IMG/VR virus record: IMGVR_UViG_2630968701_000003
Reading direction: 5' to 3' (one strand)
DNA: 64,000 nt
Source of the DNA: an uncultured virus (IMG/VR IMGVR_UViG_2630968701_000003)
Taxonomy: Duplodnaviria > Heunggongvirae > Uroviricota > Caudoviricetes
Shown: one piece after another, positions 2,666 to 32,889 of the stretch
How the letters are laid out: each line of letters starts with the position of its first letter
How positions within the stretch are numbered: position 1 is the stretch's first letter
Notes under the pieces: model-generated
What the model saw: the letters and a program-made list of their open reading frames with translations, nothing else
Told to the model about the DNA's origin: nothing
The model's database searches: none
Translations under genes and position numbers: made by a program

Positions 2666-2958
2666 GAATAGTAACCGTACAACAGAGATATGTCTAAAGA
2701 CAAAATAAAATTTCTGAAAAAGAAAGGCGTTTTGTAACCGTGTAACGCGGACATGCCTAAATGTACTGTTGCATTTCCTGAACGTCAATTTGAGTTTTGT
2801 AACTGTGTAATAGGAACATGTCTAAATAAAAAATATCCGTGAAAATTCTTGGAGTTCAGTTTTGTAACTGTGTAATAGGATCATGTCTAAATAAGGAATG
2901 GGAGATGGTCCAGAAGCAACATAGTTTTGTAACTGTGTAATAGGATCATGTCTAAATA
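2666..2958 (+). CRISPR. mini-array 2: 35-nt repeat gttttgtaactgtgtaataggatcatgtctaaata, 5 repeats (2 degenerate), 4 spacers
   Basis: repeats at 2666-2700 (degenerate), 2729-2763, 2794-2828, 2859-2893, 2924-2958; spacers 28, 30, 30, 30 nt. Confidence 0.93.
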
Positions 2959-3040
2959 GTCAAATTATTTTGCACAGTGCGTAAAAATAAGAATGAAATA
3001 ATCGAATAGACTCGTTAAAACGAGAACTGCCGTGTGGCAG
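2959..3040 (+). ncRNA. tracrRNA-like tail fused to last repeat of array 2
   Basis: gtcaaat..tgcacagt (pairs with actgtgta)..gtaaaaataaga..atcg; hairpins ctcgt-taaa-acgag and ctgcc-gtgt-ggcag. Confidence 0.85.
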
Positions 3041-3077
3041 GAAATATTTTCAAATAGCTGAGAAGGGAGAGTGCTTT

Positions 3078-3500: not shown

Positions 3501-4742
3501 ATGGAGAAAGAAAATAAACGATTACAATTTGCACAAAAAATCGGAATGACGATTTTATTATTACTTTTAATTCGATTCATGTCACATATTCCAGTGCCAG
3601 GTGTGAAACACAGTATGTTCAAGCTTGCTGTTGCAGGGAAAGGAAATGGTTATTTTCAGTTATATGATCGCCTGACAGGTGGAAGTTTTTCAAATATGAC
3701 AATCTTTGGTGCTGGTATTACGCCTTATATCACAGCAAGTATTGTTGTTCAGTTACTTGGATATACGTCTAAAAGGCTAAATCAAATGTATCATGAAGGA
3801 GAGTACGGTCGGAGACATATGCAGAAAATGACATTGTTAATCAGCTGTATTACGTCTGTAATTATTTCTTTTACTGCATCTTATACACTTTATGCACAGG
3901 GATATTTAAATGGAAAAATTTATATTCTTTTTGCTGGGTTAACGTTAATGATTGGAACCTTGATTTTAATCGGTATCGGGAAATGGATTGAACTTCGATA
4001 TTTTAAAAATGGTATTTCTTTAGTTTTATTCATTAATATTATTGCTTCAATGCCGAATGATGTATTAACAATCATCTCTTTAAAAAAATGGGAAACGGCA
4101 ATCTTAATTGCAGTAATTTTAATTACATTATTTGTTTTATTGATCATGGAGTTAATTCGTAAGGAAATCATTGTGAGAGAAAGTGCCCGAGTAGATCAGA
4201 ATGAAGAAGTTATTAAACATTTCTTTATTCCAGTTCGACTTAATATGTTAAATGTAATGCCAATCATTTTTATGAGTACAATTCTACAGTTAGTACAGAT
4301 GTTATCTCTTGTAGGCATTAAAACACAGATTTTTAATACTTCAAAATGGTTTGTTAGTACAAAACCGATTTATATTATTGGAATCATCGTATATTGTGCC
4401 GGAATTTTCTTATTTGGAGTTATGTATTCAGATATTGCCTTTAATCCTTTCACAATTGCAATTGATTTGAAGAAAAAAGCAAGCTATATTCCTGGAGTGC
4501 GTTTAGGAAATGACACATCAAAATTTTTACATAGTGCAAAGACAGGAATGATGCTTTTAGATTCTATTTTATTGACGTTAATTTCTATTGTACCGATTGC
4601 AATTACATCTATTTTAGGATTATCTTCCTTAACAATGTTTGGTACATCATTGGTTATTGTGATTGGTGTATTAGTAGAAACAGCATATCAGATTAAAGCA
4701 GAAGTATATGGCGTTCGTCAGGAGGAAAAACAATGGATTTAA
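3501..4742 (+). CDS. secY: preprotein translocase subunit SecY
   Basis: HIPVPGV, GITPYITASIVVQLL, NGISLVLF, VMPIIF, YIPGVRLG, GTSLVIVIGV motifs; about 10 TM segments. Confidence 0.95.
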   Translation: MEKENKRLQFAQKIGMTILLLLLIRFMSHIPVPGVKHSMFKLAVAGKGNGYFQLYDRLTGGSFSNMTIFGAGITPYITASIVVQLLGYTSKRLNQMYHEGEYGRRHMQKMTLLISCITSVIISFTASYTLYAQGYLNGKIYILFAGLTLMIGTLILIGIGKWIELRYFKNGISLVLFINIIASMPNDVLTIISLKKWETAILIAVILITLFVLLIMELIRKEIIVRESARVDQNEEVIKHFFIPVRLNMLNVMPIIFMSTILQLVQMLSLVGIKTQIFNTSKWFVSTKPIYIIGIIVYCAGIFLFGVMYSDIAFNPFTIAIDLKKKASYIPGVRLGNDTSKFLHSAKTGMMLLDSILLTLISIVPIAITSILGLSSLTMFGTSLVIVIGVLVETAYQIKAEVYGVRQEEKQWI

Positions 4743-4915
4743 AGAAGAAAAAAAATAAAAGTGAAAATATGGCAAAAAATGTTAGGATGACATATCCAAA
4801 ACCCATCAGTTGTATTGTGTCATATATTGTCTTATTGTTCAGTTTAATGTTGATCATGGCAGTTGTGTATGGAATTGATATTCTAGTTGCAACTTTAGCA
4901 AATAAATTTTTATAA
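4733..4915 (+). CDS. secE: preprotein translocase subunit SecE-like
   Basis: 60 aa; VRMTYPK (cf. KVxWP) then one TM ending GIDIL; lies between secY and secA. Confidence 0.65.
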   Translation: MDLKKKKNKSENMAKNVRMTYPKPISCIVSYIVLLFSLMLIMAVVYGIDILVATLANKFL

Positions 4916-4930
4916 ATTGGAGGATTAAAA

Positions 4931-7102
4931 ATGGCAGAAGCAAGACAAGTTAAAAATAGGATTGTTCAGGCTGTATTAAGAGAATGTCAAAAGCTTAAAG
5001 AAAAAGATGATCTTACAGATGAGCTTGAACATGTTAGAGATATAAAGAATAAAAAAGAACGGTTAATCAAAAGTGTTGCATTAGCAAGCGAAGCATCCAG
5101 ACGTACAATCAATATTGAACCTTATCCAGTGCAGATTTTAGCTTCGATTAAGATGTACCAGGGACATGTCATTGAAATGAAAACAGGGGAAGGTAAAACA
5201 TTTGTTTCTCCGATGACGGCCTTTGCAAAAGTATTGGATGGACAGAAGGTACATGTTTTAACGGTAAATGATTATCTTGTAGAACGTGATTACACACTTT
5301 TATTACCGGTATATGAAATGCTGGGATTAAGTGTTGGATATATTACGACAGAGACACCAATAGAAGAAAGAAAAAAAGCATACAAATGTGATGTGTGCTA
5401 CATTACAAATTCTGAGGTTGGTTTTGATTACTTAAAGGATCATTTGGCAATGCATCCAGATTCAGTTGTTTGTAATGGAAAATATGATTTTGCAATTATT
5501 GATGAAGCAGATTCAATTTTAATTGATGAGGCAAGGACACCTCTTATTATTTCAGCAGATACAGAACTTATTAGTGGTTTTTGTATCAGTTGTGCCAAAT
5601 TTGTAAAAACATTAGAACTTTCAAAAGAAACAGAAGAATTAGAAGACACAGTTTATGTCGGAGAGTTCCCTAATGTAGATGGCGATGCTATCCTTAACTT
5701 AAAATATGGACAGGTGTATCTGACTGAAAACGGAGTAAAAAAAGCAGAAGATTATTTTAATGTGGATCATTTAGATAAGTTTATATTACACAGCTTAAAC
5801 AATGCTTTGATTGCCAGATTTATAAAGAAAAAAGGTATTGATTACATCGTCAGAAGAAATGAAATAATTATCGTAGACAATGCTACAGGGAGACTCACAG
5901 AAGGACGCACATGGTCCGATGGATTGCATCAGGCAGTACAAGCGAAAGAAGGAGTAGAAATAGATGCAGCATCAGAAACTGCGGCATCTATTACATATCA
6001 ATGTCTATTCCGTCAATATAAAGATTTTTGCGGCATGACAGGAACGGTCAAAACTGAAAGAAGAGAGTTCAGAAAAATTTACAAAAAGAAGATTTCTGTA
6101 ATTCCTACAAACCGTCCTGTAATTCGTCAAGACCTGCCAGATAGAATCTTTGCTCGAAAAGAAGAAAAATATCAGGCAATTTTGGAGGAAACAAGAAAAG
6201 CTATTGATAAGGGTAGAGCTGTATTAGTTGGTACTGCCAGTGTCTTAACATCAGAAGAATTAAGTGATATTTTTGATGAAAATGACATTGGACATGATTT
6301 GTTAAATGCAAAGCTGCACCGAAGAGAAGCAGAAATTATTGCGGAAGCAGGAAGTAGTGGAAACGTAGTTATTGCAACCAATATGGCTGGAAGAGGTACA
6401 GACATTAAGATTGATGAAAAAACAAGGGCAGCAGGAGGATTACTTGTCATTGGAGCAGAGCATAATGAAGCCAAGCGTATTGACAATCAGTTAAGAGGAC
6501 GTTGCGGAAGACAAGGGGATCCTGGAAGCACACAGTTTTTTGTTTCTTTAGAAGATCGCTTAATTAATCCATATTTATCAAAATCTTATTATGAAGAAAT
6601 GAAAAAAGTAAAAGAAATTGAAAAAAAAGATCCTTTTTCTGGCAACATTATTAGAAGAGTACACAAAAGAATCGGATTACAATACTATTCTAACCGAAAA
6701 GACCTGTTTGATTATGACAAAGTAAATCAGGTGCAAATGCGAGTCATTTACAATGAAAGAGAAAAGATTCTAAATGATGATATGGATCGAGAAACTGTAG
6801 AGCGTATCGCAAAAGAAATGAACATGAAAAAAGAATTTCATGAAGCAATGAAAAGAAAAAAAGACGAAGGAAAAGATACAGTAACCATTCTGCAGGAACA
6901 GAAAAAAGTTTTGTTAAAATCTATTGATAAAGAATGGAGAAAACATCTGCAAGATTTGGAAGCATTAAAGAGAAATGAGTATCTGAAAGCATATGGTAAC
7001 ATGGATCCGGTTACACAGTATCGACTGGATGCTTATCCATTATTTGCAGAAATGGTCGTTAGAGTTAAAAAGGAATTCATGAAAGAAATTTTAAAAGAAT
7101 AA
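4931..7102 (+). CDS. secA: preprotein translocase ATPase SecA (compact, 723 aa)
   Basis: EMKTGEGKT, VHVLTVNDYL, DEADSILIDEARTPLIIS, ATNMAGRGTDI, RIDNQLRGRCGRQGDPG. Confidence 0.97.
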   Translation: MAEARQVKNRIVQAVLRECQKLKEKDDLTDELEHVRDIKNKKERLIKSVALASEASRRTINIEPYPVQILASIKMYQGHVIEMKTGEGKTFVSPMTAFAKVLDGQKVHVLTVNDYLVERDYTLLLPVYEMLGLSVGYITTETPIEERKKAYKCDVCYITNSEVGFDYLKDHLAMHPDSVVCNGKYDFAIIDEADSILIDEARTPLIISADTELISGFCISCAKFVKTLELSKETEELEDTVYVGEFPNVDGDAILNLKYGQVYLTENGVKKAEDYFNVDHLDKFILHSLNNALIARFIKKKGIDYIVRRNEIIIVDNATGRLTEGRTWSDGLHQAVQAKEGVEIDAASETAASITYQCLFRQYKDFCGMTGTVKTERREFRKIYKKKISVIPTNRPVIRQDLPDRIFARKEEKYQAILEETRKAIDKGRAVLVGTASVLTSEELSDIFDENDIGHDLLNAKLHRREAEIIAEAGSSGNVVIATNMAGRGTDIKIDEKTRAAGGLLVIGAEHNEAKRIDNQLRGRCGRQGDPGSTQFFVSLEDRLINPYLSKSYYEEMKKVKEIEKKDPFSGNIIRRVHKRIGLQYYSNRKDLFDYDKVNQVQMRVIYNEREKILNDDMDRETVERIAKEMNMKKEFHEAMKRKKDEGKDTVTILQEQKKVLLKSIDKEWRKHLQDLEALKRNEYLKAYGNMDPVTQYRLDAYPLFAEMVVRVKKEFMKEILKE

Positions 7103-7229: not shown

Positions 7230-7353
7230 GTTTTGAAACTATGTTTAATCAAATGATTTGTTATGTAAAATTAGATAATTCCAATAGTATTTTTAATGTA
7301 ACATGATGACGATGAGAGCTTTAGAACTATGTTGAATCAGATAATTCCAATAG
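7230..7353 (+). CRISPR. mini-array 3: truncated/degenerate repeats, one 30-nt spacer, final repeat gctttagaactatgttgaatcagataattccaatag
   Basis: partial repeat from 7230 (gttttgaaactatgtttaatc); repeat 3' half ending 7287; spacer 7288-7317; repeat 7318-7353. Confidence 0.75.
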
Positions 7354-7426
7354 GTCAAATGATACATAGTGTGTAAAAATAAGAAATTATCGAATTGATT
7401 TGCTCAGGCAAAATCTGCTGGTGCAG
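7354..7426 (+). ncRNA. tracrRNA-like tail fused to last repeat of array 3
   Basis: gtcaaat..acatagt (pairs with actatgt)..gtgtaaaaataaga..atcg; hairpins tttgc-tcag-gcaaa and ctgc..gcag. Confidence 0.85.
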
Positions 7427-7505
7427 AAATTAAGTTAATGAATTTTACACCGTACACTTGTTAGTTTATTTGTGTGAGGTTTCAATAAATTATGAATGTA
7501 AGATA

Positions 7506-7673
7506 GAATTATATAACGTTAAAATTGGACAATTTCAAATGTTATTCCAATTATATGTACACACAGCATTCGTTTTGTAACCATGTAAAATTGGGTGATT
7601 CCGAATGAGGCGACCAGCGTATTCCTTTTAATGAAGAGTTTTGTAACCATGTAAAATTGGGTGATTCCGAATG
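7506..7673 (+). CRISPR. mini-array 4: repeat gttttgtaaccatgtaaaattgggtgattccgaatg (36 nt), 2 identical plus 1 degenerate repeat
   Basis: degenerate ~7506-7541; spacer 7542-7571; R 7572-7607; spacer 7608-7637; R 7638-7673. Confidence 0.9.
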
Positions 7674-7749
7674 GTCAAAAAGATTACATGGTGTGTTGAA
7701 ATAAGAGTTTATCGAATGTGCCTACTAAAGTAGGAACTGTCAGGGACAG
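7674..7749 (+). ncRNA. tracrRNA-like tail fused to last repeat of array 4
   Basis: ttacatggt is a perfect 9-bp complement of repeat accatgtaa; ttgaaataaga..atcg; hairpins cctac-taaa-gtagg and ctgtc-agg-gacag. Confidence 0.88.
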
Positions 7750-7887
7750 TAAAAATCTGGATCAGCTGATCAAATAACAATCAATTTATTATCATTCTCG
7801 TTTTATGTTTTTTATATTTTCTATTGATTAGCTTTTCCAGACGAATATCAAAATAATAGATTAGATAACAAAGAAAAGGAGATTAAG

Positions 7888-9814: not shown

Positions 9815-10813
9815 ATGAAAGATTTAATTTTAATTATTGTCAGCATATTATGGTGTATTCCTATTTTAATTTCATTTGTAATTTCCGGTTTACGAGAGAA
9901 ATTAGAATCGGATCGAAATTTTTATGGAAAGGAGATTTCTCCTAAAGATATTGAATTAGTAAAAGTCAGATATAAACCAATTGATATGAAAACTTCTGAT
10001 TTTAGTGAATATAACAAAGATGGAGAGCTTCAATATTTCTACAAAAAAGGAAAGAGTCAAGATGTTGTATATGCTATATCAAAACAGGAATACGATAGAT
10101 ATTTTTTAGAATCAACGGTTGAATCAATTACAGCATATTATCCAGAGTTTATTTTTTCTTATCAGTCAACTAATGGATCAATGAAAGCAACCATCGAATC
10201 TTATAAACCTACAATAGAAAGATATTATAATCCGAAAGATATAGAACAATACAAGAAACTAATTGCTAAGAGATGCGAGAAACAGGTGTTTGCTAAAGTG
10301 CCTGGAAGTCATTTTGAATACAAAGATTGTAAAGGTCAAATAGTTGTACATAACATTGATATTGATACAAAAACAATGCATGGAACGATCACAGGAGAGA
10401 GTAATAAAGAATCTGGAAAATGGGATTACCTTTTCTATGATGAAAGTTGGTATCCACAAACGCAAAGAAAAAAGAATAGGTTTTTATCATTTTGTTCCAG
10501 ACTCGATATGCGTAGATCAGACAATATTTTTACATTGTATTTTACAATAGGTCTTATTTTCACTATTCGATTGATTACAGAAATGATCGTTAATCAAAAT
10601 TCTATGTTAACGATGGACATGAAATTTATTTTACTTTATATGATAGCAGCTTGCCTTTGTTTGATTATTGTAATTTATTTATCAGTGACGATGAAATATA
10701 TTATTGGAAAAATATTTAGTGGGGATGTATTAATTTCAAGTGTTTCTATGCTATTTACAATATATTTTATTGCAAAAGCATTTATGAGATTTGCATCAAT
10801 GATTATGAGTTAA
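9815..10813 (+). CDS. membrane protein, 'DRNFY' paralog family member 1
   Basis: N-terminal TM, REKLESDRNFYGK, GESNKESGKWD, three C-terminal TMs. Confidence 0.8.
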   Translation: MKDLILIIVSILWCIPILISFVISGLREKLESDRNFYGKEISPKDIELVKVRYKPIDMKTSDFSEYNKDGELQYFYKKGKSQDVVYAISKQEYDRYFLESTVESITAYYPEFIFSYQSTNGSMKATIESYKPTIERYYNPKDIEQYKKLIAKRCEKQVFAKVPGSHFEYKDCKGQIVVHNIDIDTKTMHGTITGESNKESGKWDYLFYDESWYPQTQRKKNRFLSFCSRLDMRRSDNIFTLYFTIGLIFTIRLITEMIVNQNSMLTMDMKFILLYMIAACLCLIIVIYLSVTMKYIIGKIFSGDVLISSVSMLFTIYFIAKAFMRFASMIMS

Positions 10814-10872: not shown

Positions 10873-11039
10873 GTTTTAAAAGTCTGTAAAAAATATCGTT
10901 GTAAATGATTGTTAGATGACGATGATCGTTTGATTGAGTTTTAGAAGTCTGTAAAACAGAATCATTGTCGATGATTAGCCATTTGTTGCATATTACGAAC
11001 ATAGTTTTAGAAGTCTATAAAACAGAATCATTGTCGATG
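10873..11039 (+). CRISPR. mini-array 5: repeat gttttagaagtctgtaaaacagaatcattgtcgatg, 3 repeats, two 30-nt spacers
   Basis: R 10873-10907 (degenerate), 10938-10973, 11004-11039; further remnant agaatcattgttaat near 10832-10846. Confidence 0.92.
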
Positions 11040-11116
11040 GTCAAATAATAAACAGACTGTGTAAAAATAAGAATTTTATCGATACTGCTCGCAAAAGCGA
11101 GAGCTGCTAGGTGCAG
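11040..11116 (+). ncRNA. tracrRNA-like tail fused to last repeat of array 5
   Basis: gtcaaat..acagact (pairs with agtctgt)..gtgtaaaaataaga..atcg; hairpins ctcgc-aaaa-gcgag and ctgc..gcag. Confidence 0.88.
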
Positions 11117-11139
11117 CAGATTATGAAAGGAGAAATTCG

Positions 11140-11922
11140 ATGGTTAAGTATTATATTATAATTGGAATTATTTATACAATCCCCTATATAGTCACTATTG
11201 TAATAAGCGGTTTACGAAAGAAGCTAGAAACAGACAGAAATTTTTATGGAAAAACTATAGATATTCAAAAGATAGAACTTACGAATGTAAGTTATAAAAA
11301 GTTTGAAATTGCAAGAAATAATATTAAAAAGTATACAGAAATGGGAGAAATTAAATATGTATATGATCGTAGCTACGATTTTGAAGATGAACGTTTGTTA
11401 TTATCTGAAAAAGAATATCAAAAATGTTTCCCAGACAAATTTGTAAAGACTACGGTTGCGTATTATATAATTTTTGAGTTTTCGTATGAGACTGATCATG
11501 GAAAAATAAAAGCAAAAATTACTCTTACAAAACCGGTAATAGAAAAAACATATAACGATAAAGATGTTGAAGAAATAAAAAAGCTTATTTATGAAGAATG
11601 CAGCAATAAAATATTTGCTAATGTAGGTACAGAAAGCAAATATAAAGATTACAAAGGACAAGAAGTCATACATTCATTACCAATAAGAACATCAACACTA
11701 GAGGGAGAGATTATAGGTGAAAGTAACAAAAGACCAGGGCAGTATGATTGGATGTTTTCAGACAGCAGTTGGTATCCAGAAGAAGCCAAAAAGAGAAATA
11801 GGTTCTTATCTTTTTGTACTTATCTCAACCCAAATAAAAGAAATTCAATATTTTTACCCTATTTTACGATTGGAATATTGGGAATAATAATCAATTGGAT
11901 GTTCAATCTAATTATTAAGTAA
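11140..11922 (+). CDS. membrane protein, 'DRNFY' family member 2
   Basis: N-terminal TM, RKKLETDRNFYGK, GESNKRPGQYD, C-terminal TM. Confidence 0.8.
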   Translation: MVKYYIIIGIIYTIPYIVTIVISGLRKKLETDRNFYGKTIDIQKIELTNVSYKKFEIARNNIKKYTEMGEIKYVYDRSYDFEDERLLLSEKEYQKCFPDKFVKTTVAYYIIFEFSYETDHGKIKAKITLTKPVIEKTYNDKDVEEIKKLIYEECSNKIFANVGTESKYKDYKGQEVIHSLPIRTSTLEGEIIGESNKRPGQYDWMFSDSSWYPEEAKKRNRFLSFCTYLNPNKRNSIFLPYFTIGILGIIINWMFNLIIK

Positions 11923-11953: not shown

Positions 11954-12568
11954 ATGCAATTTACAACACCAGATATGAGGGAAATAACCATTTCAGATAA
12001 ATCAGAAGCATGTGATTTTATAAAGGATTCATGTAAAGAATGTAATAGGAAATATGAATGTACTGGGGAAAACGCAGCATTTTGTAATCATATGAAAAAT
12101 ATCCTTGTAGCAAAGTACGGAGCAGCAGAAGGGTGTTTAAAAGAATCCAGAATTAGGCATAGTATGGGAGTTGCAAACTTCTTATTTGCCTATGCGAAAT
12201 CTCATGACTGGAGTAAGGAAGAGACAGAAGATCTTTATTTGACTGGCTTATTACATGATATAGGATATATTGACAATCCCAAAGGTACGGATCACGGAAG
12301 ATTAGGTGCAGAAATCTTGAAGAGAAATGGACTTAATGCAGAAATTTGCGAATTAATTAGTTGTCATGGAAGATTTATAGAGAACCCAAGTAGAAAGCAA
12401 GCACTTTTATGGCTTGCAGATCTATGCGTGAATCGTGATGGAGACTATATCGGATATCAAAAAAGATATGAGAGTATCAAGGAAAGATATAAGAATGATC
12501 CAGAACGTTTATTTCAAGTTTATCGGATTTTGGAATACTTGCAAATACATTTTTCGGAATACAGATAA
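11954..12568 (+). CDS. HD-domain (HDIG) phosphohydrolase
   Basis: HSMGVA..GLLHDIG..HG..H..LWLAD; Cys-rich N-terminus. Confidence 0.85.
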   Translation: MQFTTPDMREITISDKSEACDFIKDSCKECNRKYECTGENAAFCNHMKNILVAKYGAAEGCLKESRIRHSMGVANFLFAYAKSHDWSKEETEDLYLTGLLHDIGYIDNPKGTDHGRLGAEILKRNGLNAEICELISCHGRFIENPSRKQALLWLADLCVNRDGDYIGYQKRYESIKERYKNDPERLFQVYRILEYLQIHFSEYR

Positions 12569-12730
12569 ATGGTTTGTGTTTATTATGGATTCCAAAGGAT
12601 AAACTGCCGTACTACGTATAGATAAGAGGTTTTAGAGCTGTGTTTAATATGTGGATCCCAAAGGGATTCTCTACAAATACAATGTCGCCTCTACGTTTTA
12701 GAGCTGTGTTTAATATGTGGATCCCAAAGG
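12565..12730 (+). CRISPR. mini-array 6: repeat gttttagagctgtgtttaatatgtggatcccaaagg, 2 identical plus 1 degenerate repeat
   Basis: degenerate repeat ending 12598; spacer 12599-12628; R 12629-12664; spacer 12665-12694; R 12695-12730; 5' GTTTTAGAGCTGTGTT resembles streptococcal II-A repeats. Confidence 0.92.
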
Positions 12731-12807
12731 ACCAAAATATTTTGGCAGTGTGTAAAAATAAGAAAACATCGAAAAGAATCGCTATAGCGAAATCTGCTAT
12801 GTGGCAG
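12731..12807 (+). ncRNA. tracrRNA-like tail fused to last repeat of array 6
   Basis: accaaaat..gcagt (weak G-U pairing with gctgt)..gtgtaaaaataaga-aaaca-tcg; hairpins tcgc-tata-gcga and ctgcta-tg-tggcag. Confidence 0.82.
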
Positions 12808-13006
12808 AAAATTGATAAAGATATGGTTTTACATCAATTTGATATTTCTGAAATTTTTGTTTTTGGATAAATTGTAGTCCAAAACAAAATATCTTCTAAA
12901 TAAGACATAATGTTTAGAAAAGGAGATAAAATATCACGAAAAAGAGATATAAAGTAAAAATAAGGAAAAATAGAAAGTGGAATACATTTTATAGGTTACA
13001 AATTAA

Positions 13007-13061
13007 GTAAAAATAAGATTTTGCCGAATATATTCATATAGATGAATCTGTTATGAAACAG
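13007..13061 (+). ncRNA. orphan degenerate tracrRNA-like tail (no intact repeat upstream)
   Basis: gtaaaaataaga-ttttg-ccgaa; hairpins ttcat-atag-atgaa and ctgtt..aacag. Confidence 0.55.
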
Positions 13062-13090
13062 AAAAAACAAAGGAATAGGAGGACAATAAG

Positions 13091-16822: not shown

Positions 16823-16990
16823 GTCTATACGATTAAAGAAACGGAATTATTGTCAATGAATGAATTCGTAAGTTTGTCTAATGTTGTAGTTTTAGAAGAC
16901 TGTAAAACAGAATCATTGTCAATGAAAGGCGGCAAACCACAGCTCTCTACTGCCGTTTTAGAAGACTGTAAAACAGAATCATCGTCAATG
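16823..16990 (+). CRISPR. mini-array 7: repeat gttttagaagactgtaaaacagaatcattgtcaatg, 2 near-identical plus 1 degenerate repeat
   Basis: degenerate 16823-16858; spacer 16859-16888; R 16889-16924; spacer 16925-16954; R 16955-16990. Confidence 0.92.
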
Positions 16991-17063
16991 GTCAAATAAG
17001 CAGTCTGTGTAAAAATAAGAAAGCATCGAAATAATTCGCAAAGGCGAAATCTGCTGGTAGCAG
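16991..17063 (+). ncRNA. tracrRNA-like tail fused to last repeat of array 7
   Basis: gtcaaat..gcagtct (pairs with agactgt)..gtgtaaaaataaga-aagca-tcg; hairpins ttcgc-aaag-gcgaa and ctgct-ggt-agcag. Confidence 0.88.
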
Positions 17064-17102
17064 AAAATTAATTAATCCTAATTAAAAATATAAGGAACGG
17101 AG

Positions 17103-17676: not shown

Positions 17677-18684
17677 GTGAATGAATGCGAACTTGTAAAA
17701 AAGATCCTGAACCACATGAATGCAGAAGATTATAAAATCCTTATTAATAAAGTGTGGTTTCGTGGCTTTTGGGTTCCTGGAATCGCTAATCAGCGAAGTG
17801 ATAAGAAATGGCGGCCAAAAGTCGAATTTATTAATAACGATGTTGTTTTAAATAGAAAAATCCGAAAAGGTGGAAAACATAATTATGAACTATTAATTGA
17901 AGCAATGATAAAAATGGCAGAGGATCGAAATGATGAGACATATTTGCTATACAACGTAGTGAGATGGATAACAGATCCAGATTCCCATGAAGAAATTGAG
18001 GAATACTTCAATCAATTAGAAAATAAACCAAAAGACGATACAAAAAATGATTCAGAAGAAATAAAAGATACTTCTGAAAAAGATGATGTAAATGTTCAGG
18101 ATAATTTATTAAAAAAAGAAAATGAAAAGTTAAAAGCGGAAATAGATAATTGGAAAAATCGTGGAAAGAAATATAAAGAAAACATTCAGAATTTAAAAAT
18201 TAAATGCAGTAACCTGGAACAAGAAAATAACAGAGTTAAGAAAGAAAATGGAAGATTGATCAGAGAAAATAAAAAAACAAAACAGGGAAAAGATACTGTA
18301 GTAAAAGAATATAATGACAGAATCATTGCATTAAGTGTTGAAAACAGCAAATTAAAAGAGAAAATAAGAGGAAAATACAAGCCTAAGAAGAACATTGTTT
18401 TATCAAAAACATCAGGAGTTTCAGATCCGAAAGTATTATGTGTTACAAAAAATCCGGCAGATGTTTTGATCAAAGGATATAATATCTATTTTCTAACGGA
18501 TCTTGAAGAGTTAAATAAAAAGATTTATACAGAAACAGTGTTTGATCAAATCTGGTACATCAGAAGTGGGCTTACACATGCAGATTTAATCAAGGTTGCA
18601 GAAAAGTATGCTAACCAAAAAATATTACAGGCTAGGGACTGGAAAGCATTACAAAAGAAATTACAAGGAGGGGACAGGCTATGA
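17677..18684 (+). CDS. coiled-coil protein upstream of McrB (CnuA-like)
   Basis: long heptad region aa ~140-235; stop overlaps next start (ATGA); small alpha/beta C-terminal domain. Confidence 0.7.
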   Translation: MNECELVKKILNHMNAEDYKILINKVWFRGFWVPGIANQRSDKKWRPKVEFINNDVVLNRKIRKGGKHNYELLIEAMIKMAEDRNDETYLLYNVVRWITDPDSHEEIEEYFNQLENKPKDDTKNDSEEIKDTSEKDDVNVQDNLLKKENEKLKAEIDNWKNRGKKYKENIQNLKIKCSNLEQENNRVKKENGRLIRENKKTKQGKDTVVKEYNDRIIALSVENSKLKEKIRGKYKPKKNIVLSKTSGVSDPKVLCVTKNPADVLIKGYNIYFLTDLEELNKKIYTETVFDQIWYIRSGLTHADLIKVAEKYANQKILQARDWKALQKKLQGGDRL

Positions 18685-20666
18685 ATCAGGAAGATATGCA
18701 GATTATAGGGACACTGGCACTTGAAAAAGATACAAAAAGAAAAGGTGTGTTTATCAATACAAAGTCAGCAATACAGTATGTTGTTAAGTCAATGATGAGC
18801 GACTATAAATCAGATAAATTATTTACTGGATATATGAATTCATTTGAGAATGATCAGAAATTTGATGATGAATATCGTTCAGATGAAGAAAGGGTAGAAA
18901 AGTTCTGGGATCATATCTATGACAAATTGTTTATCTATAATTTCAAAGCAAATGATGGCGAATTTGAAAGAATGACAAAAGTTCATCTTGTTAATAAGCC
19001 AGTAAAATTTAATGAAGATGAATATTTTAAAGGAGTTCCGGTGTTTTCTGCTGCTACAGATGAGATCGTAAGAGAATGGGAACTGGAAAGTCAGTGGAGC
19101 TTATACAGAAACTATAATACATTAGATGAATTTTGTGATTGTATCAAAGCAAAACAGCCATTAGGAAGTACCTATGGATACGATGCAACAGAGAGTCAGC
19201 CATCATTTGTAATCTGGAAAAATCAGAATCAGAAATTGTATGTGATCGGGAAGATTGCAAATTGCCGATATAATTCGCAGCGAGGATTGATCTTAGAAAA
19301 AGAAGGACAGGAACTATTGAAAATTGATATCAGTGATCAGGCAGAAAAGATTGTCTATGATGTGGATGCTAATCCAACATTAGCTTTTGTTCCGGAAACG
19401 ATTTATAAACAGATTGAAGATCAAATTTTGAAAGCAGAAGTTGAAAGAACAAAAAAATTAGAGGCAAAGAAAAAAGAACCAGTAACAAAACAGAATCAGG
19501 AAAAGGCAGAGAGTTTTACAGAGACAGTTAATGATGCTCAGGAAGAATTAAAAGAGGTTAATACAAAAGAATACAGTGATGAGTTACTAATTCAGATGAT
19601 GGATTATCACAGTCAGAAGAGAAACTTGTTCTATAACATGAAAGATTTTGTCAATGTACATACAGCAATCAAGTGCAGCAATCTTGTAATTCTATCCGGA
19701 CTTAGTGGTACTGGGAAATCTGCTTTAGTTGAAATTTATGCAAGGGCATTAGGAATCAGAAATAACCTGGAAGATGATCGATTACTGTTTGTTCCAGTGC
19801 GACCATCTTGGAATGATGATGCCGATCTGCTTGGATATGTTGATCTGGTTCATAATGTTTATCGTCCATCAGATACCGGATTCGTTGATTTTCTGGTCAA
19901 TGCACAAAAGGAAGAAAATAAAGGAAAATTATTTATTGTCTGCTTTGATGAAATGAATCTTGCAAGAGTTGAACATTATTTCAGCCAGTTCTTATCATTA
20001 TTAGAACGTCCAGAAAATCAGAGAGAATTACAATTATATGATAGTCAGTATGCCGGACAGTTATATAATTCAGCAACATATCCAAGCAAGATTATCATCG
20101 GGGATAATATCCGATTTATTGGAACAGTTAACATCGATGAATCTACATATCATTTTTCTGATAAGGTACTGGATCGTGCTAATGTAATTGAATTAGATGT
20201 TCTGGATTATTCGAAAGAATGGACAAAGAAGCAATATGCAAGTCTGATCACACCAACATGGTCTAAAGATGAATATGATGCGTTAATCAATAAAGATGTT
20301 GATATTAAAGCAGATAAGGTGCAAGAATTATTGTGGGAAATTCACCAGCTTTTACAGTCAGCCAGTGCTAAATATGGAGTCGGACCACGAATTGTAAAAG
20401 CTATTAAAATGTACATCAATAATCTTCCTAAGACAGAGATTAATGGATTTAATAAAGGTGTAGCATTAGATTATCAGATTGCACAGAGAATATTAACAAA
20501 GGTTCGCGGACCAGAAATTCAGATTGGGCGACTGCTGAATGGAAAAAGTAATACAGGATTTAATCAAATCTTTGATAAATATAGCGAGCTATCAGATTTT
20601 AAGAAATGTAGAAAAGTAATCAGCGAAAAACAAAAGGAGTTAGGGGCATATGGATATTGTATCTAG
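18681..20666 (+). CDS. McrB-family AAA+ GTPase (NxD variant)
   Basis: GLSGTGKS, VPVRPSWND..DLLGY, FDEMNLARVEHYFSQFLS, GTVNIDEST, SDKVLDRA. Confidence 0.92.
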   Translation: MNQEDMQIIGTLALEKDTKRKGVFINTKSAIQYVVKSMMSDYKSDKLFTGYMNSFENDQKFDDEYRSDEERVEKFWDHIYDKLFIYNFKANDGEFERMTKVHLVNKPVKFNEDEYFKGVPVFSAATDEIVREWELESQWSLYRNYNTLDEFCDCIKAKQPLGSTYGYDATESQPSFVIWKNQNQKLYVIGKIANCRYNSQRGLILEKEGQELLKIDISDQAEKIVYDVDANPTLAFVPETIYKQIEDQILKAEVERTKKLEAKKKEPVTKQNQEKAESFTETVNDAQEELKEVNTKEYSDELLIQMMDYHSQKRNLFYNMKDFVNVHTAIKCSNLVILSGLSGTGKSALVEIYARALGIRNNLEDDRLLFVPVRPSWNDDADLLGYVDLVHNVYRPSDTGFVDFLVNAQKEENKGKLFIVCFDEMNLARVEHYFSQFLSLLERPENQRELQLYDSQYAGQLYNSATYPSKIIIGDNIRFIGTVNIDESTYHFSDKVLDRANVIELDVLDYSKEWTKKQYASLITPTWSKDEYDALINKDVDIKADKVQELLWEIHQLLQSASAKYGVGPRIVKAIKMYINNLPKTEINGFNKGVALDYQIAQRILTKVRGPEIQIGRLLNGKSNTGFNQIFDKYSELSDFKKCRKVISEKQKELGAYGYCI

Positions 20667-22440
20667 GACTCCATTTACCTTAAAACTTATCCAACGCTTT
20701 CCTGGTTATAAGGAAAGTGTTGGTTCTAAGTTCAGTATGAATGAACGTGATATATGGGAAAATGGATTTTATACTTTGGCAGCAGAAGAAAATGAGACAT
20801 TAGAAGTATTATTTGATTCAGCAGATAAAAACGCAAGGTTATATCTGGAAGCATTGGATGTCATGCCATATGATGATAAGAACCTGTTTGAAGATGAAGA
20901 GGGACGGTTATATCGTACCGTATCACCAGAAAGCTTTTTATTATGTTCCAGCGACAGCACAACAGATACATTAAGAGTTGACTCTTTTAAAATGTCAATT
21001 TACTGCAATGAAAAATGGTATTATGGGGTGCTAAACATCCTGCCCAAAGCAATGTCTAAAAAAGAATGGAAAATGATGAAAGATGATCTGGAAAAAGAAG
21101 TTCGTGGACTAGCTCAGGACATTATTCAGAAAAATATTGGAATTGGTAATAAAAACATAAAAATTCCTCCACGAATTCTATATGATTTCATGATTCTGAA
21201 AAAGTATTCAAAACGTGTGATCATGGCTTTAATGAATATTGCTGAAAATCCAAAATGCGAGATTGTTACGGAATATGAAAATGTATCTTTACAGAAGAAC
21301 AATGAACGTAATTTTGATGCAGCAACCATGAGAAGATACGCAACAAGATCTGGATGCGATGCCAGATGGAAGATTCCAGTCAAAAGGACATGTTATGACA
21401 TTCAGGAAAATCGCTTATTAAAAAATATGCTCCAGGAATACGATGATAAACTGGTAGAATTTATTGCTATTCTTGATAATGCGGAATCTTTTAATATGGA
21501 AGAAGAAAGTAACAAAGAAATGCTTTTAGAATTTCGAGAAACAGCAGAAAAATTAAAAAAGGTAACTGCAATCTTAAAAGCTCAGGAATGGTTTGGAAAA
21601 GTTGGGAAACTATCCGGACCTTATATTCCACATTCATTTATTCTTGATACACGCTACAATACCATTTATCAGATGCATATGGAATTAAAGCAGAATGAAG
21701 TACAGATTCATTTGAATCCAGAATTTGATTATACATGGAAGAGAAGCAGCTATCTGTATGAAATGTGGTGTTTTTTCAAAGTATGTCATTTTTGCTTTGA
21801 AAAATTAGATCTGGAATATTCTGATTGGAATTTTGATCTAAAAGGTGAAGTATTTTTTCCGTTTTTAAAAGAAGGTACTATGGTCCGCTTTTCAAACCCG
21901 GTAATCAGGGTTGATGTGGTTTATGATCAATGTTTGCCATTAGAGAAAGAAGCTACGGATATCAATCACCCATTATACATTGCAAAGCAGCATGGGGATC
22001 ACAGGAATCATAACCGCCCGGATATTGTACTTAATGTATATGACAAAGAGCGAAATGTTTATCTTGGCAGTATTATTCTGGAATGTAAATACAGAAAACT
22101 TCATTCATTTTGGAGTGAGGATTCCACACGATCAAGTAGAGGACAGTTAGAAGCTTATTATAATAATGCAAGATCTTCTCATTTATTAGCAGGATTAGGA
22201 GAGTCATTTAACATCAGGCCGATTAGTAAAGTATTGGCATTATCTCCGGATGATCGGGCAGATGGACTAGAACAGGAAGACTTTGGAATTGAAATTAAGA
22301 CCTTTAAGCCAACAGAAGATGGACGAGAAGAACATATCAATCAATGGATTTTTGAAGAAATAGTTAATTTGGAGAAACGATATGATAAATTTTGGAGAAT
22401 CATATGGCCAGATGAACAGGCGGAGGTGCATTTCGTATGA
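20650..22440 (+). CDS. McrC-like DUF2357 + PD-(D/E)XK nuclease
   Basis: YDIQENRLLK, YLYEMWCF, RPDIVL..ILECKYR; overlaps mcrB-like gene. Confidence 0.88.
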   Translation: MDIVSRTPFTLKLIQRFPGYKESVGSKFSMNERDIWENGFYTLAAEENETLEVLFDSADKNARLYLEALDVMPYDDKNLFEDEEGRLYRTVSPESFLLCSSDSTTDTLRVDSFKMSIYCNEKWYYGVLNILPKAMSKKEWKMMKDDLEKEVRGLAQDIIQKNIGIGNKNIKIPPRILYDFMILKKYSKRVIMALMNIAENPKCEIVTEYENVSLQKNNERNFDAATMRRYATRSGCDARWKIPVKRTCYDIQENRLLKNMLQEYDDKLVEFIAILDNAESFNMEEESNKEMLLEFRETAEKLKKVTAILKAQEWFGKVGKLSGPYIPHSFILDTRYNTIYQMHMELKQNEVQIHLNPEFDYTWKRSSYLYEMWCFFKVCHFCFEKLDLEYSDWNFDLKGEVFFPFLKEGTMVRFSNPVIRVDVVYDQCLPLEKEATDINHPLYIAKQHGDHRNHNRPDIVLNVYDKERNVYLGSIILECKYRKLHSFWSEDSTRSSRGQLEAYYNNARSSHLLAGLGESFNIRPISKVLALSPDDRADGLEQEDFGIEIKTFKPTEDGREEHINQWIFEEIVNLEKRYDKFWRIIWPDEQAEVHFV

Positions 22441-22778
22441 AAGAAAAAGAATTTGAAAGACGATTAGATAAAAAGATTCAAGGTCATGCGAAAATCATGT
22501 CGGATGAAAAACGGAAAAAGATACATATAGATTATGCCAAGAACCATAGTCAAAATGAACTATTTGCTGTGTGTATCGAGGAAATGAGCGAATTAACGAA
22601 ACATTTAACAAAGATCATGCGAGGAAAAGAGTCAATGAGAAATAATGCAGGATGCATTGAGGAAATGGCAGATGTTCAAATTTGTTTGAATACACTGCAA
22701 TTATATTTGGACCTTTCTGAATCTGATTTCAATTATGCAATCGATGTTAAGCTTGAGAGATATGAAGGTAGGAGGTGA
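22437..22778 (+). CDS. MazG-like nucleotide pyrophosphohydrolase
   Basis: IEEMSELTK...IEEMADVQIC EExxE/EExxD motifs. Confidence 0.8.
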   Translation: MKEKEFERRLDKKIQGHAKIMSDEKRKKIHIDYAKNHSQNELFAVCIEEMSELTKHLTKIMRGKESMRNNAGCIEEMADVQICLNTLQLYLDLSESDFNYAIDVKLERYEGRR

Positions 22779-22782
22779 TCTG

Positions 22783-23697
22783 ATGAGTAAAGATAAAAAA
22801 GAAAAGAAACGAAAAAAACGAATGAAAAAAGTCATAGCATACATTATAGCTGCAATCCTGATTATAGCTTTCAATGTTTTGTATTTGAGCAGATATTTCT
22901 TGGGAGTGTACATCAATTACAAAAGAAATGATTGGGAAACTGATCGAAATTTTTATGCAAAGAATATTAAATTGGATGATATTGAAATAGATAAAAATGG
23001 TTCAAAACAAATTGTTTATTCTTCAAAGAAATTTAGGAAGGGGAAGGCAAAGGGAAACGTATTTTACTATATAACACATAACGGAAATAAGATTTATGCA
23101 AGTATAAAAGATTACAAAAAATATGTGGCTAATTGTGATGAAGTAACTATGTATGCAAAGGATTGTCAATATTCTTATCAATCTGATAAAGGGAAGATTA
23201 ATGCAACAATGACAGGTAATCAGATTCATTTTTATCCAGTAAGTTTTTCAAAAGAAGAATTGAAGAAGATGAAAATAGATATTTGGGAAAAGTGTAAAAA
23301 TAAAATCTTTGTGAATGAATATGGAACAGATTCACATAATCATGTCATTTATCATGACTGGAAGAAACAGAAAGTTTGTACCAATTTCTTAATAAAGAAC
23401 AATGAAACAAATACATATGGAAAAGTAAAGGGAGAGAGTCTGATTACGCCGGGAAAATATGATAGATTATATCCAGATTCCGACATGTATTCTATAGATA
23501 AAGTAGAAAAATATGATCGGAAAGACAAGATGATGAATGAGGCAGCAGATTTATATTACAACAAAAAAGGAGAAAAATCTGGTTATTTTACTCTTTATGG
23601 TATGATTCTCTTTGTATTTTTAGTTCTCTTAGATCTTGTTTATACAGTTATCTTTGGAATTCCTCTCGGAGTGCTTTTCTTGATTTTTGATTGGTAA
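22783..23697 (+). CDS. membrane protein, 'DRNFY' family member 3
   Basis: AGGAGG RBS before ATG 22783; WETDRNFYAK, GESLITPGKYD; N- and C-terminal TMs. Confidence 0.78.
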   Translation: MSKDKKEKKRKKRMKKVIAYIIAAILIIAFNVLYLSRYFLGVYINYKRNDWETDRNFYAKNIKLDDIEIDKNGSKQIVYSSKKFRKGKAKGNVFYYITHNGNKIYASIKDYKKYVANCDEVTMYAKDCQYSYQSDKGKINATMTGNQIHFYPVSFSKEELKKMKIDIWEKCKNKIFVNEYGTDSHNHVIYHDWKKQKVCTNFLIKNNETNTYGKVKGESLITPGKYDRLYPDSDMYSIDKVEKYDRKDKMMNEAADLYYNKKGEKSGYFTLYGMILFVFLVLLDLVYTVIFGIPLGVLFLIFDW

Positions 23698-23728: not shown

Positions 23729-24709
23729 ATGAAAAAAATATGGATAAAATATACACTGATCATCTTGTTCTTACTCCCATTGATTACGATGATAGTAATT
23801 AATCTTAACAGAGATAAGTTAGAAAATGATCGTAATTTTTATGGTAAAGAATGTTCAGTAGATCAATTAAAAGTAACTAAAAATGGATATGAGAAATATG
23901 AATGTAATGTCAAAAACATTACGAAAAAGAAGGAATTAGGAAAAATAAAGTATGACTATGCAGATAATGTTACACAATTTGAATTAACAGCTGCAGAATA
24001 TGAAAAATACGCAAAAGGAGTGGATGTTTTTTATATATACACTCCAGAATGTGAGCTAAAATACAAATCAAACAATGGAATTTTAACTGCTGCTTTTTCA
24101 GGAAAAGAAGAATATCTGTATCCGCATAGATTTACAGAAAATGAAATGGAAGGATTTAAGAATGTAGTAATAGAAAACAGTAAAGATAAGATATTTGCAA
24201 CATATGCTTTTGAAGCTCCTTTTGGAGCTGGTCAAACATCTGAGGGTATGCCAAAATATCAGGACAAAAAAGGACGAAAATTAACTTCCGATTTTTCAGT
24301 TTCCTTAAAGTCTGCTGATGGATTTATCGAAGGAGAAAGCATAATTAAATCAGGGAAATATGATCAATTATTTGAAGATAAAGATTTTTATCAAAAAAGT
24401 ACAACAAAAATGACTGGATTAGTAGACAAGTTCTTACTTTTTTCAGCTCGGTTGAATAAAAATTATCCAGATAGTGATGTGAATTCGTATTTTGCAATCT
24501 TATTTTCCATTTTGTTTGGATATGTATATTGTTTCAAAAAACGTGATATTGGTTTAATAGCATATGCTATTTTAGCACTATATTGTATGTTAACAGAATT
24601 TGACAGCCCAACAACACACGTAATAATTTTTGGAGCTTTTGCTATGGCATTATTATGGAATTCGAGATCAGAAGAGGCAGAGGAAGGAGAAGAAAATGCA
24701 GAAAAATAG
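23729..24709 (+). CDS. membrane protein, 'DRNFY' family member 4
   Basis: RDKLENDRNFYGK, GESIIKSGKYD; N-terminal TM and three C-terminal TMs. Confidence 0.78.
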   Translation: MKKIWIKYTLIILFLLPLITMIVINLNRDKLENDRNFYGKECSVDQLKVTKNGYEKYECNVKNITKKKELGKIKYDYADNVTQFELTAAEYEKYAKGVDVFYIYTPECELKYKSNNGILTAAFSGKEEYLYPHRFTENEMEGFKNVVIENSKDKIFATYAFEAPFGAGQTSEGMPKYQDKKGRKLTSDFSVSLKSADGFIEGESIIKSGKYDQLFEDKDFYQKSTTKMTGLVDKFLLFSARLNKNYPDSDVNSYFAILFSILFGYVYCFKKRDIGLIAYAILALYCMLTEFDSPTTHVIIFGAFAMALLWNSRSEEAEEGEENAEK

Positions 24710-31272: not shown

Positions 31273-32703
31273 ATGTCATACAGTGCATTGTATCGGAAAT
31301 TCCGTCCGCAAACGTTTGATGAAGTAAAAGGGCAAGATCACATTGTTACGACACTGAAAAACCAGATTCGTAATCATCGTTTAGGTCATGCTTATTTATT
31401 TTGTGGAACAAGAGGTACTGGAAAAACAACCGTCGCAAAGATTTTGGCAAAAGCAGTAAACTGTGAGCATCCTATTGATGGAGAACCATGTGGAGAATGT
31501 GAGACATGTAAATCAATCACAGAAGGATCATCTTTGAATGTAATCGAGATTGATGCAGCTTCTAATAATGGCGTTGATAATATTCGAGAGATTAAGGAGC
31601 AGGTACAGTATTCGCCAGCAACAGGTAAATACAAAGTCTATATCATAGATGAAGTACATATGCTTTCCATCGGAGCCTTTAATGCTTTATTAAAAACATT
31701 GGAAGAACCACCGGAGTATGTCATTTTTATTTTGGCCACGACAGAAGTTCATAAGATTCCTATCACTATCTTATCAAGATGTCAGAGATATGATTTCCAT
31801 CGTATTACATCAAATGTTATAAAAAAACAATTGATTGACCTTACCAATCAAGAAAAGGTAGAAGCAGAAGATAAAGCTTTGGAATATATCGCACGAATAG
31901 CAGATGGTTCCATGAGAGATGCGTTAAGCCTTCTGGATCAGTGCATTGCCTTTAATTTGGGCAAGAAATTGACGTATGATGCTACGTTAGATGTACTGGG
32001 AACAGTAGATATTCAGGTCTATAGTGAACTTTTAGATTTCATTATGGCACAGGATGTTGCGAAGGTTATGGACTTAATTGAAGATGTTGCTAGTCAAGGA
32101 AGAGAATGGTCACAATTTATCACAGATTTTTTGTGGTTTCTAAGGAATCTTTTATTAGTTGGGCAGGGAACAGATGCAGAAGAAGCATTAGAAGTATCTA
32201 CTGAACAAATGAAGTTTCTACAGGAGAAAGCAAAGTTGATCGATGAAAAATTATTGATCAGGGATATTCGTATTTTATCAGCATTGTTGGAAAAATTACG
32301 TTTTGCTACAACAAAAAGAGTCTTAGTGGAAGTAGAATTAATCAAATTATGCAAGCCAGAAATAGAGATGAAGAATACTGATCTTGCTGAAAAAGTAAAA
32401 TCATTAGAAGAACAATTAAATCTCGTCATGCTGCAATTAAAGAAAAAAGAAAAAACAAAAGAAGAGAAAAATACTAAGAAACTACCGGAACAAAAATCAG
32501 GGCAGGAAGAACAAATAAGAAAATCTATAGAAAGACTTCCAGAAATGATTCGTTATTGTTTAAAAAGAGCTGAGTTAAAGTTCGATGAAAAAGAAAAGGC
32601 AACAACGTTTACTTTTCCAGAGGAATGTATCCTTGAAAAACAATATGTCATTGATCATAAAGAGTTGATTGAAAAATCTGTTCATGCACAGATCATTGTG
32701 TGA
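31273..32703 (+). CDS. dnaX: DNA polymerase III subunit gamma/tau
   Basis: ALYRKFRPQTFDEVKGQDH, GTRGTGKTT, EIDAASNNGVD, IIDEVHMLS, SRCQRY. Confidence 0.97.
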   Translation: MSYSALYRKFRPQTFDEVKGQDHIVTTLKNQIRNHRLGHAYLFCGTRGTGKTTVAKILAKAVNCEHPIDGEPCGECETCKSITEGSSLNVIEIDAASNNGVDNIREIKEQVQYSPATGKYKVYIIDEVHMLSIGAFNALLKTLEEPPEYVIFILATTEVHKIPITILSRCQRYDFHRITSNVIKKQLIDLTNQEKVEAEDKALEYIARIADGSMRDALSLLDQCIAFNLGKKLTYDATLDVLGTVDIQVYSELLDFIMAQDVAKVMDLIEDVASQGREWSQFITDFLWFLRNLLLVGQGTDAEEALEVSTEQMKFLQEKAKLIDEKLLIRDIRILSALLEKLRFATTKRVLVEVELIKLCKPEIEMKNTDLAEKVKSLEEQLNLVMLQLKKKEKTKEEKNTKKLPEQKSGQEEQIRKSIERLPEMIRYCLKRAELKFDEKEKATTFTFPEECILEKQYVIDHKELIEKSVHAQIIV

Positions 32704-32725
32704 ATCATAGAAAAAGAGGATAAAA

Positions 32726-32875
32726 ATGAAAAGAAAAGTTGAACTATTATTAATGGCAATGGCACTTATTGTGTTGGCCATTATTTTTTTACAAGAAACA
32801 ACAACAAAATGTGTATTACTTGTGGTACTGATCGTGCTGCAAGTGATCACTGAGAAAGAAATTAAAGAAAATTAA
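32726..32875 (+). CDS. small hydrophobic protein (49 aa)
   Basis: AGAGGA RBS; two short hydrophobic segments; fills the dnaX-dnaN gap. Confidence 0.5.
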   Translation: MKRKVELLLMAMALIVLAIIFLQETTTKCVLLVVLIVLQVITEKEIKEN

Positions 32876-32889
32876 AGGAGAATTTTATT

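Follow-up and report, generated by a model that had tools for sequence, protein, structure and literature searches.

Seven mini-arrays with fused tracrRNA-like tails

The window (the whole stretch of 64,000 nucleotides that we analysed, IMG/VR virus record IMGVR_UViG_2630968701_000003) contains seven mini-arrays of repeats and spacers. In each of them, the final repeat, of 35-36 nt, is joined to an anti-repeat and a tracrRNA-like tail. All of these cassettes are on the plus strand.

Array 2 has five repeats of 35 nt (starting at 2666, 2729, 2794, 2859, and 2924) and four spacers of 28, 30, 30, and 30 nt. The 5'-most repeat (R1, 2666-2700) is eroded and trailer-like; it is common to all eight spacer orders of this array, and we consider it the oldest copy. 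It is followed by the oldest spacer (S1, 2701-2728), which is present in 8 of 8 alleles, and by R2, S2, R3, S3, and R4 (2729-2893). Next come the newest spacer (S4, 2894-2923), which would be the guide of the fused RNA, and the tail-fused repeat (R5, 2924-2958), which is the copy that is duplicated on acquisition, according to a comparison of alleles. The junction GTCAAAT (2959-2965) is a candidate integration anchor, a distal anti-repeat, or both. The anti-repeat (2970-2988) is the partner of R5 in the upper and lower stem, as indicated by covariation across 22 cassettes. The tail itself (2981-3043) matches the Rfam family RAGATH-30 and has a tracrRNA-like nexus region and two hairpins, which resemble canonical II-A tracr tails. 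We did not find an excess of promoter-like sequences near array 2 (5 found versus 3.3 expected).

The earlier note on this DNA described a stepwise divergence of the array 2 repeats toward the 5' end, and this is borne out: out of 35 positions, R4 has 0 mismatches to R5, R3 has 1, R2 has 8, and R1 has 12. A degenerate 5'-most copy had also been claimed for arrays 3 to 7; it is indeed there, and array 1 has one as well (12-16 mismatches over these six arrays).

Besides array 2, six further arrays and one orphan tail are spread over 1.1 to 17.1 kb of the window. Cassette 1 (1164-1348) consists of a degenerate repeat, a spacer, the fused repeat, and the tail, and has 10 alleles. Cassette 3 is at 7230-7429, and cassette 5 (10873-11119) has two spacer orders. 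The fused spacers of cassette 4 (7506-7752; spacer 7608-7637) and cassette 7 (16823-17066; spacer 16925-16954) match the same small integrative element at 30/30 and 29/30 nucleotides. The fused spacer of cassette 6 (12563-12810; spacer 12665-12694) matches a prophage at 29/30. The orphan tail (13007-13064) was identified with Rfam's RAGATH-30 model and has no repeat. The combined pattern of junction and tail occurs 5 times in the window, versus 0.00 times expected from 100 shuffles.

Several other genes lie among or near the cassettes. Four paralogous membrane proteins that do not belong to any Pfam family are encoded at 9815-10813, 11140-11922, 22735-23697, and 23729-24709, and two of them flank cassette 5. 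We considered whether the 776-amino-acid open reading frame at 13091 might be a Cas9-like protein, and this was ruled out by comparisons to Pfam, NCBIfam, PDB, and Atlas. Just past the cassette cluster is a McrBC-like pair (AAA_5 and DUF2357, 18681-22440), which is possibly a further defence system.

The element that carries the cassettes

Among the products of the element are a coupling protein, a VirB4-like ATPase, ArdA, and sortases, and it also has genes for replication; the members of its protein clusters are named Anaerostipes hadrus. Its left junction disrupts a gene for a metal repressor and lies about 800 bp upstream of the window; this gene is intact in the genomes G429 and G430. The coupling protein, the VirB4-like ATPase, and the chromosomal insertion are features of an integrative conjugative element, and most likely this is a conjugative island of over 240 kb from A. 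hadrus. We did not locate its right end or an integrase. (An 18-bp shared sequence that we considered as its attachment site proved to be a phage attachment core.)

The element also carries its own secY, secA, dnaX, dnaN, uvrD, and topoisomerase genes (3501-7102 and 31273-39606). Intergenic repeats of another family, each about 60 nt long, are found at 29652, 43298, 51407, 57834, and 63085; they come with promoter-like repeats upstream of them and precede several operons. A sister contig encodes an RHS-repeat protein and two small ATLF-like metallopeptidase-domain proteins (L039:10816-18045; L041:6957-8770).

Arrays grow at the tail side

Pattern scans gave 28 viral loci on seven contigs and at least 147 metagenome stretches. 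We parsed 284 cassette records and kept the 276 records with a visible 5' end. Because the records overlap, we counted alleles instead of records.

Array 2 has eight spacer orders in 41 records. All of them begin with S1; a four-way fork comes next, and one of the branches forks again. Across all loci, there are 11 nodes at which alleles have a 5' block in common and then diverge in their spacers, versus a single node, in array 1, at which differing spacers precede a common 3' block (the records are redundant, and the forks are not fully independent). Similarly, among the 71 pairs of alleles that share a spacer, the private spacers are on the tail side in 67 and on the 5' side in 5. (Another 52 pairs share no spacer.) Furthermore, two independent runs out of four reveal one more spacer next to the fused repeat of array 1. 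Older spacers are lost as well in some cases, and array 7 has an internal deletion.

The erosion of the repeats has the same polarity. In a set of 61 distinct arrays with at least three repeats, the fused repeat differs from the penultimate one by 1.3 mismatches on average (and by none in 34 arrays), and from the first one by 13.2. (The parser identified upstream repeats by their 3' ends, which biases the positions of the mismatches, and it split some loci.)

The earlier note had suggested that new spacers are inserted beside the tail, which would change the fused guide, and that a comparison of orthologous arrays would reveal which end varies. In that comparison, it is the tail end that varies, and the 5' spacers are shared. 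The 11 to 1 ratio of forks, the phage-matching spacers on the tail side (see below), and the extra spacers in two runs all support insertion beside the tail. We are highly confident that acquisition occurs at the tail side, and each spacer addition appears to make a new ready-made single guide.

A few details bear on how spacers are integrated. One protospacer is present in two cassettes that have different repeats (L061 and L109). In L018 and L109, which are cassettes with 35-nt repeats, a terminal base of the 29-nt spacers is common to spacer and repeat, as though integration had slipped by one base. Also, the two cassettes whose repeats start with GCTTT have low spacer turnover (window 7318, with one order in 20 records, and L041:18989, with one dominant order), which hints that a GTTTT repeat end matters for integration.

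Spacers match phages and a small integrative element

S4 is identical (30/30) to sites in four phage contigs, with TAAAAT as the 3' flank, and these phages encode a polymerase, an anti-repressor, and a terminase. In another allele of array 2, the tail-side spacer matches the same phage, 3 nt downstream of the S4 site. Three spacers match the prophage G418, and five match a small element in G424 with Rep, FtsK, and integrase genes. Overall, we found targets for 10 of 97 spacer clusters (with 0-2 mismatches); none of 60 shuffled spacers had a match in 2.8 Mb of phage loci. Within the window, 4 of 7 fused spacers have targets, versus 0 of 7 upstream spacers (three of the four direct scans with window spacers used fused ones). 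In IMG/VR, S3 has no exact 24-mer match outside of arrays, and exact scans with the fused spacer of array 4 and with one relative's spacer gave no target. Neither INPHARED nor PLSDB contained spacer matches, and we saw no convincing self-target on the element.

The protospacers share a short motif: NNAA is present on the tail-facing 3' flank of 9 of 10 protospacers, versus 2 of 10 for the mirror motif on the 5' flank and a background of 0.10. (NNAA was chosen after viewing the data, and the count includes a spacer that was taken as 30 nt; with the parser's length of 31 nt, it is 8 of 10.) At the level of sequence, these data establish that the arrays grow at the tail end, where the repeat is duplicated, that the spacers are about 30 nt long and derive from phages and a small integrative element, that the 3' flank is NNAA, and that the 5' end erodes.

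The targets are clustered. In a 47-kb prophage, three of them fall in a stretch of about 580 bp (L260:9913-10490); in a 34-kb phage, two are found in 62 bp (L254:3689-3750); and in the small element, five fit into 2.7 kb (L499:8959-11620). The clustering could arise from priming, from selection for blocking sites, or from a conservation bias.

The cassettes are predicted to encode single-guide RNAs

Eight tails in the window score above the gathering threshold for RAGATH-30 (RF03055), including the one without a repeat. In Rfam, RAGATH-30 is classified as an sRNA and its description gives no function; the main text of PMC5737381 does not mention RAGATH. (We dismissed seven pattern matches in GTDB as chance: they lack an upstream repeat, and RAGATH-30 was found in 0 of the 5 that were tested.)

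We aligned the RNAs of 22 cassette types. The start of the repeat pairs with the tail in 98% of the cells. Pairing in the upper stem between repeat and anti-repeat reaches 88.6%, and 5 of its 9 pairs show two-sided changes; in the first hairpin of the tail, this is true of 5 of 5 pairs. The last hairpin reaches only 67% because its loop lengths misalign. The pairing controls overstate the significance of these values because the structure was drawn from one aligned sequence and because the sequences are related. By eye, the cassette tail looks similar to those of tracrRNAs from canonical II-A loci in Lachnospiraceae.

The spacer, repeat, anti-repeat, and tracr hairpins lie on one strand, with predicted pairing as in a single guide. 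Given the pairing and the likeness of the tails, we read each cassette as spacer, repeat, loop, and tracr, so the cassettes are predicted to give a natural single-guide RNA. The tail belongs to RAGATH-30, which we read as the tracr half of that guide. When the array 2 RNA was folded with a 20-nt guide, the predicted fold preferred pairing of the spacer with the repeat over pairing of the repeat with the anti-repeat.

The junction next to the last repeat

In the window, the last repeat is followed by GTCAAAT in arrays 2, 3, 5, and 7 (as the earlier note had it), by GTCAAAA in arrays 1 and 4, and by ACCAAAA in array 6. On the minus strand, GTCAAAT reads ATTTGAC, which had been noticed to be one base away from the leader end of some II-A arrays. 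This comparison is correct: according to PMC5382924, leaders of Group 1 II-A arrays end with ATTTGAG and have a conserved GAG/GTTT junction, and only the last base of ATTTGAG differs. Across 24 cassette types, 15 have GTCAAAT, and 6 of 7 bases agree with ATTTGAG in 15. Positions +3 to +6 are CAAA in 24 of 24, although this invariance is partly forced, as our search pattern and parser required part of the motif. (Of the tails found with the Rfam model, 7 of 8 in the window and 10 of 12 in contig G004 pass the junction filter.)

As a leader-anchoring motif, which the earlier note suggested it to be, the junction is at most a candidate. In favor of this, the motif abuts the boundary of the duplication exactly. 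But the minus strand reads GAC and then C, not GAG/GTTT (the last base of the repeat is G in 23 of 24 types, and most array 2 alleles have GAC/T). Also, the motif overlaps a predicted helix, and cassettes with variant junctions (GCCAAAT, ACCAAAA, and ATCAAAT) acquire spacers.

Instead of being a DNA anchor, GTCAAA might be kept as a distal anti-repeat or by descent, with the last repeat chosen in some other way; we give this an even chance. The distal helix (repeat positions -12 to -7 with junction positions -2 to +4) is 80% paired, the GCCAAAT cassette is not only active but the most variable (different spacers in 4 of 4 records, and up to six of them), and cassette 3 has a perfect GTCAAAT yet only one spacer order in 20 records. 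On the other hand, two-sided changes are seen at just 1 of the 6 pairs of this helix; C+3 is invariant, including in the 8 of 22 cassettes that have lost its partner; the next two bases, which are unpaired A's, are invariant as well; and there is the exact fit to the duplication boundary. That GTCAAA acts as a sequence-read DNA anchor is a possibility that we entertain tentatively. We also noticed that two Lachnospiraceae II-C leaders start with a junction-like sequence, 3 nt out of register.

A predicted nuclease-dead Cas9, probably on the same element

Contig G004 overlaps positions 49.7-64 kb of the window at 98-99.8% and encodes a II-A-type Cas9 of 1312 amino acids (L041:8941-12879), with cassettes beginning about 40 bp after its stop codon. 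In this protein and 20 relatives (71-100% identity), the RuvC-I aspartate is replaced by threonine in 21 of 21, and the two histidines of RuvC-III are lost in 21 of 21. The HNH domain is deleted in 16 of them, and its histidine is replaced by tyrosine in 4. In contrast, the next 99 Cas9 matches keep the catalytic residues (one could not be parsed at RuvC-I). Judging from its sequence, the element's Cas9 has neither an active RuvC site nor an active HNH site and belongs to a conserved nuclease-dead clade of II-A Cas9 proteins. The cassettes also have the 36/30 repeat-spacer period of II-A systems (35-nt repeats in array 2). We also saw 16 further clusters of Cas9 proteins from which the HNH domain is missing entirely.

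Array 2 and the dead Cas9 do not share any single contig, and contigs G001 and G002 end before the gene and contain no Cas9. Because the Cas9 gene is at 189 kb, we infer the linkage across overlapping contigs: G003, which has a window-type cassette cluster, is collinear with G004 up to 156.8 kb. We considered whether the cluster next to the dead Cas9 and the cluster in the window are alternative alleles, but the contig overlaps favor the far end of the same element.

The dead Cas9 is likely to be the effector of the cassette guides. A less probable alternative accepts growth at the tail side but has the guides direct an active II-A Cas9 of the host, with the dead Cas9 as an accessory or decoy. 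This would fit with the absence of Cas9 from G001 and G002 and with the complete II-A locus in G424, from the same genus. There is also precedent in PMC11656645 for mini-arrays that exploit host effectors, and for an inactivated phage Cas9 that is proposed to sequester crRNA. However, the cassette repeats start with GTTTT, while host-type repeats start with GTTTGAG, and only 1 of 20 genomes from the genus has a related Cas9. The dead Cas9 directly adjoins cassettes, and its cluster has 2780 members, versus 980-1631 for six other genes of the element. Overall, we consider it unlikely that a host nuclease is the effector.

Spacer acquisition probably occurs in trans

We did not find adaptation genes on the element. 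Cas1 was missing from 5 of 5 records in one profile search and from 1 of 1 in another, a II-A Cas1 query (positive control included) did not find it in 4 of 4 records, and Cas1, Cas2, Csn2, and Cas4 are absent among the 222 open reading frames that we scanned with Pfam (these are from fragmentary contigs and mostly of 90 amino acids or more). The closed host-like genome G429 has no Cas1, Cas2, or Csn2 either; Cas1 is present in 9 of 20 genomes from the genus. Since the element seems to lack Cas1 and Cas2, acquisition is probably in trans, and a type II Cas1-Cas2 is the likely source of the activity. An orphan II-C-like cas1-cas2 pair without an array is present on a mobilisable element in G116 (L401:230-1437), and L406-L408 have similar pairs. 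The pair from L401 is a candidate for the in-trans integrase.

Could the polarity arise without an integrase, by recombination between near-identical repeats on the tail side or by copying from host arrays? The element does encode a YqaJ recombinase and an ERF protein, Cas1 was not found, and the internal deletions in array 7 and the 5'-side fork in array 1 would fit. But new spacers bring an exact copy of the cassette's own repeat and are tightly distributed around 30 nt, and the PAM has the same orientation in 9 of 10 cases. Nor did we find a donor: no array with cassette repeats is present in 401 Lachnospiraceae genomes, and a RAGATH-30 search of samples of 150 and 20 genomes did not reveal one. 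We think recombination is quite improbable, and like the host-nuclease explanation, it is weaker than acquisition by Cas1-Cas2 in trans. The remaining idea, raised by the earlier note, is that there is no acquisition and only the terminal unit is under selection; the invariance of cassette 3 and the mere two spacer orders of cassette 5 would suit it, but it is contradicted by the eight orders of array 2, the 10 of array 1, and their distinct phage-matching spacers on the tail side, it cannot account for different new spacers that each come with a duplicated cassette-specific repeat, and we consider it very improbable.

Comparison to known systems

According to bioRxiv 10.1101/2025.06.12.659244 and PMC8092290, II-A systems join the PAM end at the leader junction, which leaves it facing away from the leader, and II-C systems do the reverse and are transcribed toward the leader. 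These sources also provide precedent for the II-C orientation and for acquisition in trans, and PMC6737040 describes II-C arrays as running opposite to their cas genes. In the cassettes, the PAM end faces the growing end, which is the reverse of II-A and is as in II-C.

The most similar II-A systems are those of Group 1 (Lachnospiraceae L355-L374). They share 36-nt repeats, 30-nt spacers, the layout of the tracr tail, a 3' PAM, and the Cas9 clade (about 42% identity). However, they grow at a 5' leader, their tracrRNA is a molecule of its own, their Cas9 is active, and they include cas1-cas2-csn2, while the cassettes grow at the 3' end and have a fused tracr and a dead Cas9, and their adaptation genes were not found. 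Among the 20 closest canonical II-A loci, the 5' leader ends with ATTTGAG in 17 of the 19 that were parsed (one of these was misparsed). The cassettes have no such growth at a 5' leader with GAG/GTTT, their PAM end is not away from the leader, and there is no cas1-cas2-csn2 in the locus.

Like II-C systems (Neisseria, Flavobacterium, and Lachnospiraceae L409-L415), the cassettes are transcribed toward the growing end, have the PAM end facing the leader, and lack Csn2. Growth is thus at the 3' end of the transcript, if we have inferred the transcribed strand correctly from the anatomy of the guide. But in II-C systems the tracrRNA is separate, the Cas9 is short and active, and there is a cas1-cas2 pair belonging to the system; also, the Lachnospiraceae II-C repeats end with TATAAT in 6 of 6 arrays (13 loci). 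The cassette repeats do not end this way, so they lack the repeat-embedded -10 promoter, and the element's Cas9 is not of the II-C type.

Two other systems share features with the cassettes. First, in the tracr-L of Streptococcus II-A systems, as described in bioRxiv 10.1101/2023.03.03.530964, the guide, repeat, and tracr are in one RNA and lead to binding without cleavage, as predicted for the cassettes. However, the single guide of tracr-L is fixed, spans 11 bp, and is directed at the cas promoter, while the cassettes have many full-length and changing spacers against mobile DNA. Second, type IV-A plasmid CRISPR systems and viral mini-arrays (PMC11656645) are also borne by mobile elements, lack a cutting nuclease, obtain spacers in trans, and target rival elements. 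They use class 1 effectors or host repeats, while the cassettes are class 2, with fused guides and a repeat of their own in each. By analogy, the cassettes work like a combination of II-C polarity, the RNA form of tracr-L, and the lifestyle of type IV-A, and they are a member of none of these. We regard them as a variant form of type II CRISPR. We found no prior description in the literature that we searched, which lies mostly outside of subscription journals, and one may exist.

A model for the cassettes

We propose that the cassettes are probably an adaptive single-guide derivative of Lachnospiraceae type II-A on a conjugative element. A type II Cas1-Cas2, supplied in trans, would duplicate the fused repeat and integrate PAM-oriented spacers. 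The DNA on the tracr side would serve as the leader, toward which the PAM end would point, in the manner of II-C. The newest spacer would become the fused guide, and older spacers would be demoted or would depend on tracr in trans. The guides would load the element's dead Cas9, which would bind and block competing mobile DNA without cutting it. The dead Cas9 may also choose PAMs during acquisition; selection of PAMs by Cas9 without nuclease activity has been reported for II-A and II-C (PMC12477760). The full version of this model has close to an even chance of being right, if slightly less: an undescribed type II variant in which a tracrRNA gene doubles as the leader and about twenty self-updating cassettes feed a dead Cas9 that silences phages and rivals at NNAA, with a borrowed Cas1-Cas2, II-C geometry, and an inverted and modified II-A anchor.

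If this is correct, then an adaptive system can be built on natural single guides, with the newest memory wired in as the active guide. Array polarity (the side of the anchor, Csn2, and the hand-off of the PAM) would be separable from the split between II-A and II-C, and this could be tested on a 150-bp cassette. RAGATH-30 would gain a function. And a nuclease-dead Cas9 would be natural and widespread in a common human gut bacterium, where it may block instead of cut.

Host defences may have encountered the cassettes as well. The chromosome of G429, which is host-like, contains an orphan type I-like array (C1, around 1,221,040-1,221,090; L397) with a 35-nt spacer that matches a cassette tail at 34 of 35 positions, so it appears that a host CRISPR system once targeted the cassettes.
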